In this document: positions 21,729 to 26,332 of the stretch, one piece after another
How the letters are laid out: every line of letters starts with the position of its first letter
Position numbering within the stretch: the first letter of the stretch is position 1
Program-made: the position numbers and the translations under genes
Assembly: GCA_024238995.1 (NCBI GenBank)
Contig: JANBVL010000001.1
Coordinates: forward strand, 74,059 to 138,058
DNA from: Patescibacteria group bacterium
GTDB taxonomy: Bacteria > Patescibacteriota > Minisyncoccia > Minisyncoccales > JANBVM01
Length of the DNA: 64,000 nucleotides
Direction of reading: 5' to 3'
The notes under the pieces: generated by a model
What the model was told of the DNA's origin: nothing
The model's database searches: none
The model's input: the letters and a program-made list of their open reading frames with translations, nothing else

Positions 21729-22115
21729 TCATTTCAAATACTTTTTTACTTTTTCAACAAACTGTTTGGGAGTAAAATCTGCTTTAATAAGATAATCTTT
21801 TACCCCAAAGTCAATTGCTTTTCTTCTTGCCTCTACTCCATCATAATTTGTAAAAACAATTACTGGTATTGCTGCAATTTCAAGATCTTTTTTAAGCCAT
21901 TTTAAAAAAAATAACCCACTTTCCCTAGGAAGTAAAAGATCAAGAATAATTAAATCAGGTTTTTCCTTTTTTGTAATTTCAAGCGCTTCTTTTGATTCAA
22001 TAGCTGAAATAACTTCAAAACCAGCTTTTACAAATGTATCATAATACATTTCTGCTAATACTTTCTCGTCTTCAACGATCAGTATTTTCTTTTTTAAAGA
22101 TTTTCCTTTGCTCAT
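21729..22115 (-). CDS. single-domain response regulator (receiver only)
   Basis: KILIVEDE...DLIILDLLLP...K receiver motifs and no output domain. It overlaps the kinase gene by 44 nt. Confidence 0.85.
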   Translation of the reverse strand: MSKGKSLKKKILIVEDEKVLAEMYYDTFVKAGFEVISAIESKEALEITKKEKPDLIILDLLLPRESGLFFLKWLKKDLEIAAIPVIVFTNYDGVEARRKAIDFGVKDYLIKADFTPKQFVEKVKKYLK

Positions 22116-23721
22116 ATTTAATAGGAATCTTTATGTTAAAAGCAGAACCTTTTTCCCTTCCAGAACTTTTAACACTAATACTTCCATTATGCATTTCTGC
22201 AAATTCTTTTGCAATGTATAATCCCAATCCAGCGCCTTCTACCCATGTTCTTTTGCCAGCAGACCCCCTTGAGAAGATTTTGAAAAGTTTGTCTAATTCT
22301 GATTTAGTCATGCCTGCCCCAGTGTCAGAAATTTCAATTTCACAAGCACCATTTTCTTGAGCATATTCTATTGTTATTCCCCCTGTTTCAGTGTATTTAA
22401 TTGCATTATCAATAATATTTAAAATAACCTGCCTTATTTTCATCCTATCTAACAACACTCTTTCTAGTCTTGTTTTTGGCTTTTCCCATTTTAAATAAAG
22501 ATTTTTTGCTCTGGCCAAGTTTTTAAGCTCTATTATTATACTACTAATTAAATCTTCTAAAGCAAATTCTTCTGTTGCCACCTCCATTTTCCCAGACTCA
22601 ATCCTTGAAATGCTTAAAAGATCATTAACTAATTTTATTAATCTTTCGACAGAAGTGTAAACATTTTTCAAAGGTTTTTTCATTTTCAATGGAAATTCTC
22701 CATAAGTCTTATCCTTTATCAACGACACATAGCCCTTAATAGCTGTTAAAGGAGTTCTTAATTGATGAGATGCAATAGAAATAAACTCTGATTTAGCAAT
22801 ATCAAGTTTTTTAAGCTCTTTATATGCTTTTTCTAAATCTTGACTTATCTTTTCAATCTGCTCTCTTCTTCTTATCTCGTCTATTGTAGCTCTAATTAAG
22901 TAATAACCAAAAATACAAAATAGGATAAAAACACTAGAATTTAAAACCTTTAACCAGAGAATTTCATTTACCCAAGCTTGAACAAGTAAAATTAGCGCTA
23001 TTACCACTACAAAAAGCTCAACAAGAACTACTTTAATTTGGAAAAGATGGTGCTTGGCAATAGCAACAGTAACAAAAATAGAAAATATAATAGTGGCTAA
23101 TGGACCATAATTGGCAATATTAAAAAAACCAAGATAAGGAAATACAATATTAGTAGTAAAACCAAAGATTAAAGATATTGTTAAACCTGTTAACACATAC
23201 TTAATCTGAAGCTTTTCAATTGTTTTGTCATATTTTCTCAGTTTTAAAAACAAGACAGCTCCAACAAAAAATGAAATCAGAGAATAATTGATAACATAAA
23301 GGTTATATAATTGCCCGTAAACAGTTTCTCGTTGTCCAGGTCCAATTATGATCTCTTCGCTAGCTACCAGCGGCGTAAAAGTTGTCAGGATAAAAAGAGC
23401 CAAAAACAAGGGGATTAGATACTTACTTATCTTCTTGAATTCAAAAAGAGATTCGGTAGGAAAAACTACTGCGAATTTCAATAAATAGTACAAAATTGGA
23501 ATAACCATTGCAAAATTAATTCTTCCCAGCCACAACACCCATTGAGGACTTTCAAGGCTGTAGTATAAAAAAAGAGAAATCAACCAAGCATTTGCAGATA
23601 TTACGCTAAGAAAAAAAGTTTTATTTACTTTTTCCTTTCTGCCTTTTAATAATACAAAACCAGCTAATAAAAAATTAGAAAAAATTGATATAAAGTAAGT
23701 TAAGCTCTCTGTTATGGACAT
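22072..23721 (-). CDS. membrane sensor histidine kinase
   Basis: The roughly 270-aa N-terminus is polytopic. The H-box is IASHQLRTPLT, and HATPase_c N/G boxes follow (NIIDNAIKYT, DTGAGM, GAGLGLYIAKE). Confidence 0.88.
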   Translation of the reverse strand: MSITESLTYFISIFSNFLLAGFVLLKGRKEKVNKTFFLSVISANAWLISLFLYYSLESPQWVLWLGRINFAMVIPILYYLLKFAVVFPTESLFEFKKISKYLIPLFLALFILTTFTPLVASEEIIIGPGQRETVYGQLYNLYVINYSLISFFVGAVLFLKLRKYDKTIEKLQIKYVLTGLTISLIFGFTTNIVFPYLGFFNIANYGPLATIIFSIFVTVAIAKHHLFQIKVVLVELFVVVIALILLVQAWVNEILWLKVLNSSVFILFCIFGYYLIRATIDEIRRREQIEKISQDLEKAYKELKKLDIAKSEFISIASHQLRTPLTAIKGYVSLIKDKTYGEFPLKMKKPLKNVYTSVERLIKLVNDLLSISRIESGKMEVATEEFALEDLISSIIIELKNLARAKNLYLKWEKPKTRLERVLLDRMKIRQVILNIIDNAIKYTETGGITIEYAQENGACEIEISDTGAGMTKSELDKLFKIFSRGSAGKRTWVEGAGLGLYIAKEFAEMHNGSISVKSSGREKGSAFNIKIPIKYEQRKIFKKENTDR

Positions 23722-24572
23722 TAATTATGTAAAAAATGTTTTCTGCTTTTCTCAGTCCACTCTGATATACTCTGTTCAGTTAACTCTTTATTAAAAGCTT
23801 TTTTAGCTAGTTGAAAATAAGGTATGGCTACCAAAACGCAACCCATATCCCCTTTGTTAATTTTTTTTGATACAAGATCTACAAAAATCTCTTTATACTT
23901 TACTCTCTGATTTTTTCCTATTTCTATAATGCTCTGAACTGTATTGAAATAAACTCTTTCTTTAATAGCGTCTATATTCTGTTCTTCGGTGATTATTTCT
24001 CCAACATCCTCCATGAACAAGCATGCAGCACTACTTCTATCTTCAGGTATTCCAATAGCTACTGTTCCATATAAATAAGCAGGGCCTGATTTATAATAGG
24101 ACTTTACAGCGCAAGGAACATGAGTGCCTGGTAAAAGTGGAAAGTGGCGCTTGTCATTGGTGCCAAAAAGCGCTTGAGCTGCTTCTCTTAAATTTTCTCC
24201 ACTCTTAATCTTTATTCCACCAAATTTTTTAAGGCTTTTTTCCGACAAAAAAGAAGGCAATCCTATGCCTTCCTTTTTTGCAACATCATAGCCCCAAATT
24301 AAACCCTGGGGTCCGCAGAATGAAGATACTACGCTCATATTTATCTGACCGATATAAGCACTGCTAACTTCTGCTTTGTCATAAGCTAATATGGAATCAA
24401 GTTTTTTTGAGCCAGGATGGCTAAATACCTGCTTAAAACTCTCTATCCCCACAACTAAAGCAGTTAAATAGCTGTCTTGGCCTGGATATCCTGCACAATA
24501 TTGCTCAAAAGGAGAGATAGCTGATTCTAATATTTTCTTTTCCGAAAAACTAACTTTCATAGATAATCTCAA
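23721..24572 (-). CDS. hdcA: pyruvoyl-dependent histidine decarboxylase-family proenzyme
   Basis: AYDKAEVSSAYIGQINMSVVSSFCGPQG closely parallels Lactobacillus 30a HdcA SYDRAETKNAYIGQINMTTASSFTGVQG as I recall it. The Ser-Ser self-cleavage pair is at codons 83/84 (24321-24326). FPLLPGTHVPCAVK and LFMEDVGE also match. Confidence 0.82.
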   Translation of the reverse strand: MRLSMKVSFSEKKILESAISPFEQYCAGYPGQDSYLTALVVGIESFKQVFSHPGSKKLDSILAYDKAEVSSAYIGQINMSVVSSFCGPQGLIWGYDVAKKEGIGLPSFLSEKSLKKFGGIKIKSGENLREAAQALFGTNDKRHFPLLPGTHVPCAVKSYYKSGPAYLYGTVAIGIPEDRSSAACLFMEDVGEIITEEQNIDAIKERVYFNTVQSIIEIGKNQRVKYKEIFVDLVSKKINKGDMGCVLVAIPYFQLAKKAFNKELTEQSISEWTEKSRKHFLHN

Positions 24573-24649
24573 TTAATTCCAATTTACTGATTTAATCTAG
24601 AGAAATTTATTATATTAAATTATATAACATTAATAAAATTCAAGCAATA

Positions 24650-24682
24650 AAATAAAAAAGGGCCGGAAAGCAATTTCCGGCT
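24650..24682 (-). terminator. Rho-independent terminator
   Basis: Minus strand reads gccggaaattgctttccggc followed by ccttttttatttt. The stem is an 8-bp GC-rich pairing, immediately 3' of the 24690 gene. Confidence 0.7.
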
Positions 24683-24689
24683 AATTATG

Positions 24690-25448
24690 TTATGAGAAAC
24701 GAGAAGCTATTGACATAACGCTCTTGACCTTTGCTGTTGTCACGCTCTGAGCAATCTTTAATACTGATCTGAAATCAGCGTTGTAAAGAAAAACTATCTT
24801 TTTTCCGCCAACTTCAATCTTTCTTATTGGCTTGAACCCCATAAAGATTGCCAGAGGAACGATATTCGACTCTGGAGTGCTCCAAAAAATAGTCTGTTTC
24901 ACTCCTTGTTCAAATGCCATCTCCAGGCCAGGCCTGAAAAGAAAACGGATTGGGTCTATCCCGCCTCTGAACTCTTTCAAAATAGCAAATTCATCATAGA
25001 AAAGGATTTTATCACTTTTTTCCCTCAATAAAGTTTCTATGCTTTGAATTTTTTGTTCATCTACTGATTCAGCTTTCATTAACAGGCTTGCTTTAATTCT
25101 TTCTGCAACACTGCCAGTCTCAATTAGAGACCCCCAACTGAATCCAGCAATAGGATTTTCAGGATTACCGTCCATCATAGTAAGAACAGGTTCGGATTCT
25201 CCAGTGATGTCTCTTTCTATCTTTTCTCTTGTTTCAACCTCTTCCCAAGTTTCTTCCCAAGGTGGTTCAAGAAATACACTTTGATAAGCTTTAACAAGAG
25301 CTTTCAGCATATTTTCAGGAATAATTTTGGAAAAGTAACTATAGTATCTTTGATTTTCTTCGGGTTGAATTGAAGATCCGCCTCGTTCTCTTATTTTTAT
25401 CCTTATGGTCCATAGCCGTAAGAACTTTCGTATTATCCAGTATTTCAT
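24690..25448 (-). CDS. hypothetical protein, possibly GNAT-like acyltransferase
   Basis: The track ORF extends to 25493, but a canonical promoter ends 4 nt before that ATG. GAGG-8 nt-ATG at 25448 (MKYWIIRKF) is the more plausible start. AYQSVFLEPPWEETW and FYDEFAILKEFRGG resemble GNAT motifs only loosely. Confidence 0.55.
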   Translation of the reverse strand: MKYWIIRKFLRLWTIRIKIRERGGSSIQPEENQRYYSYFSKIIPENMLKALVKAYQSVFLEPPWEETWEEVETREKIERDITGESEPVLTMMDGNPENPIAGFSWGSLIETGSVAERIKASLLMKAESVDEQKIQSIETLLREKSDKILFYDEFAILKEFRGGIDPIRFLFRPGLEMAFEQGVKQTIFWSTPESNIVPLAIFMGFKPIRKIEVGGKKIVFLYNADFRSVLKIAQSVTTAKVKSVMSIASRFS

Positions 25449-25495
25449 TTTCATTACCTCTTTTTCAACATGCAACATCGTTGCATACTGCATTG

Positions 25496-25523
25496 ATTAT
25501 ACAAATAAATTTATTTTTGTCAA
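25496..25523 (-). promoter_or_regulatory. sigma70-type promoter
   Basis: Minus strand reads TTGACA, a 16-nt spacer (AAAATAAATTTATTTG), then TATAAT. Confidence 0.6.
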
Positions 25524-25534
25524 CATGGTTGTTA

Positions 25535-25592
25535 AAATAAAAAAGTGCGTGATTTTAAGCTTTAAAAAATTTTAAAACTATATAAATCACGC
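25535..25592 (-). terminator. conserved 3' flank / long-hairpin terminator, copy 1 (partner 25939-25995)
   Basis: Minus strand reads GCGTGATTT...AAATCACGC (9-bp stem) followed by ACTTTTTTATTTT. The roughly 57 bp, including the last codon and TGA, are nearly identical behind both small membrane genes. Confidence 0.5.
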
Positions 25593-25838
25593 CGAATGTT
25601 GAATAACTTTTTCTTCTGTATCACGATCCAGAAAGATTATGAAAGACAGAAGCAAGGGAACGAGCCCAATTATAATGAGTGCCCATCCTCCCAAGATGTG
25701 GGTATCATATTGGGTAGTTGCTGGTTCGCTATCTGGTGGAATATCTATATTCCACTCTACTATTGTTGGCTCACCAAAAATCATTAAGCCCAAACCAGCA
25801 GCTATCAGGAACAAACCTAACATCAAAAGAAACAACAT
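25587..25838 (-). CDS. small two-TM membrane protein, paralog 1
   Basis: MLFLLMLGLFLIAAGLGLMIFGEPTIVEWNIDIPPDSE...LGGWALIIIGLVPLLL. The track start (GTG 25862) lies inside a conserved GGAGGTGATAGAAA leader that is in a different frame in paralog 2. I therefore prefer the ATG at 25838. Confidence 0.6.
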   Translation of the reverse strand: MLFLLMLGLFLIAAGLGLMIFGEPTIVEWNIDIPPDSEPATTQYDTHILGGWALIIIGLVPLLLSFIIFLDRDTEEKVIQHSA

Positions 25839-25886
25839 TATTTTCTCTCTTATTTCTATCACCTCCTTGAAAGAACTTAAGATTTA

Positions 25887-25917
25887 TTATAATAACAGAG
25901 ATAACAATTTTGTCAAT
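25887..25917 (-). promoter_or_regulatory. conserved promoter-like leader of paralog 1
   Basis: Minus strand TTGACAAAATTGTTATCTCTGTTATTATAAT aligns with TTGACAAAATTATTAGTTTTGTTATCGTGATAAAT upstream of paralog 2 (26277-26312). Confidence 0.45.
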
Positions 25918-25938
25918 GTGTCTATAATATTAGGATAT

Positions 25939-25995
25939 AAATAAAAAAAATGCGTGATTTTAAGCTTTAAAATTTTAAAACTATATAAATCACGC
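25939..25995 (-). terminator. conserved 3' flank / long-hairpin terminator, copy 2
   Basis: Same gcgtgattt...aaatcacgc hairpin and T-run as 25535-25592. Confidence 0.5.
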
Positions 25996-26286
25996 TATTG
26001 GAGGAATTTGTTCTTCTTTATAGTGTTGCGACAAAGGACTTGCTAACATTATAAATATTAATCCAGTTACAACCATCCCTAATCCCATCTGGATGTGATG
26101 GCTGTATTCATTATTTGTGTCTTGCGGGATATCTATATCCCAAGTTGCTGTTGCTGGCTCACCAAAAGACATGATGGATATCCCAACAATTATCAGGATT
26201 AATCCTGATAAGAAAAACAAATCCAGATTATTGGTTCCTATTTTTCTATCACCTCCTGATATACAAAAGAACTTAGAATTTATCAC
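25990..26286 (-). CDS. small two-TM membrane protein, paralog 2 (true start probably internal)
   Basis: FGEPATATWDIDIPQDT and the two TM segments parallel paralog 1. The N-terminal roughly 20 codons overlap the conserved leader, so the start is uncertain. Confidence 0.55.
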   Translation of the reverse strand: MINSKFFCISGGDRKIGTNNLDLFFLSGLILIIVGISIMSFGEPATATWDIDIPQDTNNEYSHHIQMGLGMVVTGLIFIMLASPLSQHYKEEQIPPIA

Positions 26287-26332
26287 GATAACAAAACTAA
26301 TAATTTTGTCAATAAATCCTGCTTCCGCCCCT

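Follow-up and report, generated by a model that had tools for sequence, protein, structure and literature searches.

The stretch of DNA analysed here, referred to throughout as the window, is 64,000 nucleotides of contig JANBVL010000001.1 of a Patescibacteria group bacterium (assembly GCA_024238995.1). It is a low-GC stretch of a 642-kb genome in 15 contigs that is rated 100% complete, and the closest public relative of this genome is a Candidatus Nealsonbacteria chromosome (L002). On the minus strand of the window lies a gene for a protein of the pyruvoyl-dependent histidine decarboxylase (HDC) family. The gene order on that strand is an open reading frame (ORF) of 267 aa at 24690-25493, the HDC-like gene, a sensor kinase of 549 aa, a receiver of 128 aa, and aspS. 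The features of importance to this locus are as follows.

25496-25523, minus strand: promoter-like element TTGACA-16-TATAAT just 5' of the GNAT-fold gene, a consensus match only, at 12 of 12 positions
24690-25493, minus strand: 267-aa ORF for an acyltransferase-like protein (P0004) with a GNAT fold according to its fold model
24662-24681, minus strand: terminator-like hairpin between the GNAT-fold and HDC genes, with an 8-bp stem containing five GC pairs, then a T run
23721-24572, minus strand: ORF of the HDC-family proenzyme (P0001), with 147.3 bits to PF02329, 129 bits to TIGR00541 and matches to the 1PYA/1HQ6 chains
24321-24326, minus strand: codons for Ser83-Ser84, the predicted serinolysis site, at which Ser84 would become the pyruvoyl group
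22072-23721, minus strand: kinase ORF, 549 aa
22855-23721, minus strand: sensor part of the kinase (residues 1-289), with a HisKA_7TM bundle, a hairpin at residues 120-135 and two further membrane helices
22072-22854, minus strand: kinase core (residues 290-549), with a DHp domain carrying His319 and a CA domain with N, G1 and G2 boxes
21729-22115, minus strand: receiver-only response regulator, 128 aa, with Asp59 and 77.1 bits to PF00072
22855-26332, no single strand given: block that varies in comparison with the related genome G082, containing two small membrane ORFs, GNAT, HDC and the sensor region of the kinase gene

An earlier interpretation of this locus made from its letters alone (the sequence-only reading) described the HDC, kinase and receiver genes as one unit. 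The overlaps and coordinates that it gave are correct: the last base of the HDC stop is also the first of the kinase start (TAATG), and 44 nt are common to the kinase and receiver ORFs. It missed the upstream ORF at 24690-25493, whose GNAT-fold product is a conserved partner of HDC. Its description of a 283-aa HDC protein holds for the ORF, but the real start is most likely the ATG at 24560, giving 279 aa, because the nearest homologues have 278-279 aa and begin with MK(V/I)SF. If the TTGACA-16-TATAAT element is in use, the GNAT gene would begin at one of the ATG codons 3' of it, at 25478, 25454 or 25448; the position of the TTGACA-16-TATAAT element together with the homologue alignment suggests that the true start lies between Met6 and Met16, and is probably Met14 (25454) or Met6 (25478). 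Because a terminator-like hairpin follows the GNAT gene, this gene may in this genome be transcribed separately from the HDC, kinase and receiver genes. A TTGCTT-17-TATAAT element lies 3' of that hairpin; it was read from the sequence and falls below the threshold of the promoter scan, which listed no promoter between the GNAT and HDC genes. Scans for tRNA genes and Rfam families in window positions 20-28 kb gave no matches.

The HDC-like protein is a member of the pyruvoyl-dependent family, as the sequence-only reading had proposed. Its PF02329 score compares with a cut-off of 25 bits and covers profile positions 5-272 of 294, the protein aligns to both chains of the Lactobacillus 30a enzyme (PDB 1PYA/1HQ6), and it contains the motif AYIGQINMSVVS|SFCGPQG, in which the two serines are residues 83-84, at the codons previously given. 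Its TIGR00541 score lies below the cut-off of 346.65 bits of this NCBI equivalog model, which makes it a member of the family below equivalog level. Residues of the pocket and catalytic site were numbered after the Lactobacillus 30a enzyme, with L. reuteri HdcA as the alignment ruler, and were checked in 47 sequences of the clade of HDC proteins that share the gene context described below (the cassette clade). In the 30a enzyme these residues include Asp63, Glu66, Ser81, Ser82, Phe83, Lys155 and Glu197, with Asp63 binding the imidazole ring of the substrate. Their equivalents in the window protein are D65, E68, S83, S84, F85, K157 and E188, and all are kept. Across the cassette clade the equivalents of Asp63, Glu66, Ser81, Ser82, Phe83 and Glu197 are invariant (47/47), and the Ser-Ser-Phe site, including the serine pair on whose retention in orthologues the sequence-only reading had depended, is likewise kept in 47/47. 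The equivalent of Ile59 is kept in 45/47 and that of Lys155 is K or R in 46/47, while Tyr62 is replaced by Phe in 35/47 and Phe195 varies among L, F, I and M. Apparently, then, the HDC homologue is a divergent but competent pyruvoyl enzyme. The earlier suggestion that it may act on a different substrate finds no support in the pocket, where the equivalents of Asp63, Glu66, Ser81, Phe83 and Glu197 are invariant and no residue speaks for a substrate other than histidine.

The sequence-only reading noted that neither hdcB nor hdcP adjoins this gene, and this extends to the genome as a whole: phmmer searches of all six-frame ORFs with the proteins of the L. reuteri plasmid cluster hdcP-hdcA-hdcB-hisS found no homologue of HdcB or HdcP. 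The hisS gene lies on a different contig, unlinked to HDC, and the sole amino-acid-permease match in the genome is a marginal 29-bit AA_permease_2 hit about 60 kb from HDC. A role in the homeostasis of pH or energy like that in lactic acid bacteria, which had also been proposed, is unlikely without an exchanger.

The GNAT-fold protein has no Pfam or NCBIfam match, and its profile gave only marginal matches to PDB sequences, the best being AAC(6') at E 0.042. The AlphaFold model, built with an alignment of 29 relatives (predicted local distance difference test (pLDDT) score 93.1), is a complete GNAT domain with a basic and amphipathic N-terminal helix. Foldseek with this model returned 457 PDB matches at E<=1e-3, all of them GNATs, with insect arylalkylamine and dopamine N-acetyltransferases on top of a list that includes LasI, TofI and FeeM. 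The best VIA-align match was 1WWZ (Z 15.8, root-mean-square deviation (rmsd) 2.6 Å, 155/157 residues). On these models the GNAT fold is certain; the GNAT subfamily is not. A word-based homologue search found 11 matches, all named 'hypothetical protein', and 364 clusters at E<=1e-10 were recovered when the GNAT alignment was used as the profile in an exhaustive search. HdcB was considered as a relative of this family and ruled out, as the sequences do not match. The predicted complex of HDC and GNAT scored 0.00, which gives no verdict and counts neither way for binding. We note that the GNAT genes of loci L017, L020, L022 and L028 encode an insert with two CxxC pairs, resembling a zinc ribbon, after a conserved W-x-E motif.

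When scanned alone, the N-terminus of the kinase matches HisKA_7TM (PF16927) over residues 1-229 with 38.2 bits against a cut-off of 28.6. The model of this sensor (pLDDT 89.2) has seven helices, with the beta-hairpin between helices 4 and 5, and its two additional membrane helices lead into the DHp helix. The positive-inside rule places the N-terminus and the hairpin on the outer side of the membrane. The best Foldseek match of the seven-transmembrane (7TM) sensor was GPR156 (E 8e-4), and in a fold search independent of Foldseek the top 50 matches were all 7TM domains of G-protein-coupled receptors (GPCRs), with Z from 17.0 to 13.8, rmsd of 3.2-3.8 Å and 206-223 aligned residues for most rows (best Z 17.0, 3.2 Å, 209 residues). 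Because helical bundles attain Z of about 14 by arrangement, we read this modelled likeness as one of architecture, not of homology. Sensor conservation is slightly greater on the outer halves and loops (0.48 versus 0.425, permutation p 0.03), where the conserved residues include Trp46, Arg67, Asn69, Glu123, Thr133, Gly136 and Asn191. The kinase core matches HisKA with 64.1 bits and HATPase_c with 86 bits, and His319 and the N, G1 and G2 boxes could be located. The receiver has no output domain. The genome contains three HisKA kinases and five receivers, the latter all single-domain and in stop-to-stop ORFs of 126-153 aa (contigs C1, C4, C6, C7), and none of the response regulators detected in it has a DNA-binding or other output domain.

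Comparison with G082, a genome of the same family, suggests how these genes are inherited. The two genomes are syntenic on both sides of the variable block by tblastx and tblastn, with identities of 65% for orf185, 66% for the Mur ligase, 61% for the kinase core, 70% for the receiver, 78% for aspS, 49% for orf306 and 74% for orf360. The Mur ligase forms one conserved flank; the other consists of the kinase core, the receiver, aspS and two more genes. Between them G082 has no GNAT or HDC gene, and a small ORF, a TrmB regulator and NAD synthase stand in that place. The G082 kinase (440 aa, positions 11953-13275 of L086, which is G082:C1:170000-188000) aligns to the window kinase solely from residue 290 on (61% identity, 82% positives), and its N-terminus is a 6TM_PilS domain that has no counterpart anywhere in the window genome, whose two other kinases are 35-37% identical to the G082 core. 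The right junction of the block is in frame, at the border between the membrane domain and DHp. The L002 chromosome shares the block, with 83% identity to the window in the sensor part compared with 72% in the kinase core. Since G082 keeps the kinase core, receiver and aspS without them, we conclude from these alignments that the GNAT gene, the HDC gene and the stretch of the kinase gene that encodes the sensor, at window 22855-26332, are inherited as one gained-or-lost block, for which either direction, gain or loss, would fit. Two paralogous small ORFs of 91 and 98 aa (25587-25862 and 25990-26286, minus strand) lie between the Mur ligase and the GNAT gene. Both encode two hydrophobic helices and the common motif FGEP...W(N/D)IDIP, and a promoter-like site precedes each; neither has a Pfam match or a counterpart at the related L002 locus.

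A scan of one genome per species yielded 70 HDC loci, in which partner genes were identified with profile HMMs built for the purpose. In nearly all loci of several candidate phyla the GNAT gene is immediately upstream of HDC, and the gene immediately downstream encodes a kinase whose membrane domain is homologous. The same order is found in a Vicinamibacterales metagenome-assembled genome (MAG) and in MAGs labelled Gammaproteobacteria or Pseudomonadales. Gaps between the cassette genes are mostly -4 to +26 nt, and the GNAT and HDC genes overlap in many of the other loci. In seven Actinomycetota loci the kinase gene is inverted, convergent with HDC, yet adjacent to it, and the 7TM domain that it encodes is the same: E values run from 1e-27 to 1e-35 at six of the loci, and L041 has two split ORFs with weaker matches (6e-15 and 4e-07). 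When the 70 HDC proteins were placed on a quick maximum-likelihood tree, 39 of the 48 rows in the cassette part had both GNAT and 7TM kinase. The kinase alone is present in three rows and the GNAT alone in two, four of these five lying at contig ends. The other side of the tree (22 rows, including L. reuteri HdcA, Bacteroides, Methylobacter and Methylocystis) has neither partner in any row (0/22), and the partner label clustered as tightly in 0/500 shuffles. The link to a two-component system proposed by the sequence-only reading is therefore borne out for the sensor kinase, which is conserved across phyla and not there by accident; the receiver comes straight after the kinase in just 5/30 testable loci, and was rejected as a conserved cassette member. 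Also rejected was aspS, considered by analogy to hisS in lactic acid bacteria, as it is present in three close relatives only and reflects local synteny.

All-against-all clustering of the neighbours of the 70 HDC genes produced four recurrent families only, namely kinase, HDC, GNAT and receiver, and across 46 cassette loci there was no exchanger or other recurrent transporter. On the other side of the tree, nine Bacteroides loci have an hdcP-type antiporter about 0.7 kb downstream of HDC (E 1e-85 to 1e-91), an arrangement in agreement with a published survey of decarboxylase and antiporter (PMC8465708). Loci L052-L064 show this classical arrangement in Bacteroides, for example with the antiporter at L052 9568-11001. 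As the two sides of the tree differ in partners, the HDC family splits by context into decarboxylase with exchanger and decarboxylase with GNAT and 7TM kinase. Several loci have further arrangements. Tandem ORFs of about 225 aa with a 7TM domain and no kinase lie a few kb upstream of the cassette at L070 1057-3117 and at L044 244-909 and 4120-4797. A second 7TM kinase paralogue is just upstream of the GNAT gene at L007 5386-6990 and L021 5381-7018, flanking the enzymes with sensor kinases on both sides. In Thermodesulfobacteriota, a protein of about 390-405 aa with HATPase_c and without HisKA or 7TM overlaps HDC upstream (L038 1171-2388, L043 6845-8008), and no GNAT was detected at these two loci.

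In an unbiased draw of 401 genomes of the phylum, HDC is present in five, one of them a fragment, and the GNAT family also in five; three genomes have both, and in these the genes are adjacent. The four best 7TM matches in this sample (298-317 bits, the next being 222) come from precisely those four genomes that have a full HDC gene, and in each the sensor is encoded next to HDC. A higher score for this subfamily is to be expected, as the 7TM profile was built from HDC-linked receptors; even so, the 77-bit gap together with the perfect coincidence with HDC genomes shows, at the level of profile scores, that the HDC-linked sensors form a separate subfamily. HDC is present in 4/151 genomes of the order and in 0/3 genomes of the same family, and the cassette is thus a rare accessory. 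No published description of a GNAT-HDC-7TM kinase cassette was found in literature searches.

Fused and variant forms of the cassette also occur. Protein P0182 (483 aa) is a natural fusion of GNAT (residues 6-200) to a complete HDC (residues 206-478, PF02329 139.8 bits), known at the protein level from a single contig. Four GNAT-family proteins have a domain resembling an S-adenosylmethionine-dependent methyltransferase in front of the GNAT and no HDC nearby, and in every case the next gene encodes a protein with a related 7TM domain (E 1e-50 to 1e-60 against our 7TM profile in three, the fourth by a precomputed HisKA_7TM match). Three of these neighbours are HisKA_7TM-GAF-HD proteins and one is cut by a contig end; the variant cassettes with 7TM-GAF-HD (HD_5) are at L088 4607-8588, L096 1952-5836 and L087 3719-6609. 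At L096 a GAF-GGDEF protein lies just upstream of the variant cassette, hinting at a cyclic-di-GMP output. In the methyltransferase-linked receptors (n=3) the scaffold is kept and the outward-facing changes are L50N, Y54D, N69S, E123V, R131A/S and Y139F, which, for these three sequences, fits different ligands for different partner enzymes. Ten GNAT representatives were looked up, four of them picked for their length: HDC is adjacent or fused in 6/10, and a 7TM neighbour is present in 6/8 that could be tested. Locus L093 (355-4465) carries a string of a decarboxylase of the Orn/DAP/Arg type dependent on pyridoxal phosphate (PLP), two tandem GNATs and HDC, beside a phage-type integrase.

Taken together, the conservation of these genes points to a previously undescribed unit in which an amine-derived small molecule would be made and something of the same chemistry sensed. 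That the ligand of the sensor belongs to the chemistry of the HDC and GNAT enzymes is the best explanation, because the co-inheritance of sensor and enzymes outlasts inversion, changes in gene order, fusion and domain swap. Our preferred reading, to which we assign a probability of roughly 45%, is that decarboxylation of histidine is followed by N-acylation of the amine, and that the product is what the 7TM kinase senses. Judging from the conserved residues, the HDC proenzyme would cleave itself at Ser83/Ser84 to generate the pyruvoyl group and would decarboxylate histidine to histamine in the cytoplasm. The fold, adjacency and natural fusion of the GNAT suggest that it would then N-acylate the amine, with acetyl-CoA (CoA, coenzyme A) as the simplest donor. 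An acyl-CoA is a plausible donor in this organism and an acyl-acyl carrier protein is not, because a 2-oxoacid:ferredoxin oxidoreductase is present (POR_N, 170 bits) and no acyl carrier protein (PP-binding) was detected in the genome, which rules the latter out here; acetate kinase was likewise not detected in the genome, and it has no Acetyltransf_1 match above the cut-off. The acylated product would be neutral and could exit the cell with no need for an exchanger of the kind on which classical hdc clusters depend. The HDC-linked 7TM sensor, as co-inheritance suggests, would bind the acyl-amine or a close relative in the histidine, histamine and acyl-histamine series, and binding at its outward pocket and hairpin would switch the fused kinase, which would in turn phosphorylate a stand-alone receiver. 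As all five receivers of the genome are single-domain, the output is probably protein-protein rather than transcriptional. Signalling was one of the functions listed by the sequence-only reading, and is the best fit among them. Sensing of the product is favoured because there is no exchanger, acylation would neutralise the amine for exit, and the conserved face of the sensor is outward.

Several observations weigh against this interpretation. Every chemical step of it is inferred, including the ligand and the direction of the signal, and sensing of product is not distinguishable from sensing of substrate by the present data. Many GNAT types tie at Z 14-16, so the subfamily is not resolvable by fold, and the acceptor and donor that we propose for the modelled protein are consequently guesses; its CoA loop reads R-G-G-x-x-P, one residue short of the canonical Q/R-x-x-G-x-G/A. 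CoaE was not detected in the genome, so CoA would need to be salvaged. The Z values of 14-17 of the sensor may reflect only the arrangement by which helical bundles reach about 14, and the 7TM family is present in 176/401 genomes of the phylum, so most of its members must sense something else. In the window itself a terminator-like hairpin stands between the GNAT gene and HDC. Four loci on the cassette side of the tree (L029, L038, L043 and L046) are without both partners, and the GNAT-HDC pairs L090 and L093 are without a 7TM neighbour. The basal fork of the quick HDC tree is also weakly supported, and as such we claim a clustering of the cassette rows rather than a clean clade.

Other explanations must be weighed against the same evidence. 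The 7TM kinase could sense external histidine, histamine or acidity and tune a histidine-consuming pathway, with the enzymes as its regulated or adaptive arm, serving nutrient use, detoxification of amines by acetylation, or cytoplasmic proton consumption. The linkage data fit this as well, the tight coupling of HDC and kinase genes, with the short gaps given above, suits a co-regulated operon, and the classical decarboxylase systems of lactic acid bacteria are, as is generally known, acid- and substrate-induced. However, the 46 cassette loci have no recurrent transporter or exchanger and so no apparent proton-motive benefit, transcriptional feedback on the operon is not evident given five receivers without DNA-binding domains and a receiver after the kinase in 5/30 loci, and GNAT relatives without a decarboxylase still keep a 7TM partner; we regard sensing of substrate as unlikely. 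It is less likely still that HDC acts on another amino acid or a peptide-bound residue to produce some other metabolite, for envelope modification or as a secondary metabolite, with the kinase watching the envelope. The low TIGR00541 score, the Phe at Tyr62 and the variable Phe195, the zinc-ribbon inserts of some GNAT members and the basic amphipathic N-terminal helix of the GNAT could all be accommodated in this way, but the equivalents of Asp63, the imidazole binder of the 30a enzyme, and of Ser81 are invariant, and the cassette has no envelope or biosynthetic genes as recurrent neighbours.

The GNAT could instead be a maturation or regulatory factor of the pyruvoyl proenzyme that replaces HdcB, with plain histamine as the product. 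A precedent is PanZ/PanM, which acts on PanD in enterobacteria. PanZ/PanM has a GNAT fold, binds acetyl-CoA and triggers the cleavage of pro-PanD (PMC4410942, PMC3398536, PMC3496974). The absence of hdcB from the genome and from all 70 loci would be in keeping with such a replacement, as would the position of the GNAT gene, which adjoins and often overlaps HDC and is fused to it in P0182. Four methyltransferase::GNAT members with a 7TM protein and no HDC would be unexpected for a dedicated maturase, though, the non-Firmicutes HDCs on the other side of the tree have neither HdcB nor GNAT nearby, and the GNAT, which has 250 aa and additional helices at both termini, is much bigger than PanZ, all of which makes this explanation improbable. 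The patchy distribution of the cassette, in 4/151 genomes of the order and 5/401 of the phylum, might even suggest a decaying or selfish accessory insert in which adjacency is functionally meaningless. This is scarcely credible given intact ORFs, invariant catalytic residues, and a linkage that survives across phyla, inversion, fusion and changes in gene order.

Synthesis and sensing of an acylated amine by adjacent genes would have wider implications. Candidate-phyla bacteria have tiny genomes with few sensors, and one of the three HisKA kinases of this genome is dedicated to the cassette. If true, the proposal would provide the first ligand for a widespread and uncharacterised family of HisKA_7TM sensors, the first signalling molecule for candidate-phyla bacteria, and an example of amine signalling via a seven-helix receptor outside eukaryotes. 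In its most extended form, which is speculative and which we hold to be doubtful, the HDC-linked HisKA_7TM would be a bacterial receptor of GPCR-like fold for an N-acyl histamine made by the adjacent enzymes, which would represent a new chemical class of autocrine or cell-to-cell signal. The three-part block, two enzymes with a sensor domain, would be exchangeable onto resident kinase or HD-phosphohydrolase outputs, used by ultra-small episymbionts and passed between phyla. The sensor-swap polymorphism is a ready-made design of chimeric reporter for ligand tests. Surveys that define histamine producers by decarboxylase and antiporter (PMC8465708) overlook a whole branch of the HDC family. New in the present analysis are the sensor swap, the GNAT::HDC fusion, the methyltransferase variant, the contrast in antiporters and the phylum-wide sample.

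The cassette shares features with several known systems. The window HDC belongs to the same Pfam family as HdcA of Lactobacillus 30a and L. reuteri and shares its Ser-Ser-Phe site and residues Ile59, Asp63, Glu66, Ser81, Lys155 and Glu197, but it is only about 30% identical, about 30 residues shorter and far under the equivalog cut-off, and in place of HdcB, HdcP and a linked HisS it has a GNAT and a 7TM kinase. The N-terminus of the window kinase passes the Pfam cut-off for HisKA_7TM (PF16927), a family for which we know of no ligand; the HDC-linked members differ in forming a separate, high-scoring subfamily. In the literature searched, HisKA_7TM appears only in a listing of sensor domains (PMC5847659). 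Genetic pairing of a GNAT-fold protein with a pyruvoyl decarboxylase proenzyme is shared with PanD/PanZ (PMC4410942, PMC3398536), although PanD has a different fold, PanZ has about 127 aa, and the cassette GNAT also occurs with 7TM proteins without HDC. Insect arylalkylamine, agmatine and polyamine N-acetyltransferases and bacterial Eis acetylate biogenic amines including histamine (PMC5799202, PMC6070697). Arylalkylamine-type acetyltransferases are among the best fold matches of the cassette GNAT (4FD6, Foldseek E 3e-8; the acetyltransferase 7CIV, Z 15.0 with 183 residues aligned), but identity is 9-16%, unrelated GNATs tie in Z, there is no membership of a sequence family, and the activity is predicted only. 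Autoinducer synthases are paired with polytopic kinases in CqsA/CqsS of Vibrio, LqsA/LqsS of Legionella, and LuxM/LuxN. The enzymes of these pairs are unrelated to those of the cassette (PLP-dependent acyl-CoA transferase versus pyruvoyl decarboxylase and GNAT), as is the sensor fold (HisKA_7TM, GPCR-like), and the ligand of the cassette is only proposed. In common with these pairs, the cassette places a small-molecule enzyme beside a kinase that senses only by a multi-helix membrane domain, and its logic would be the same, to make a diffusible molecule and to sense it in or at the membrane.

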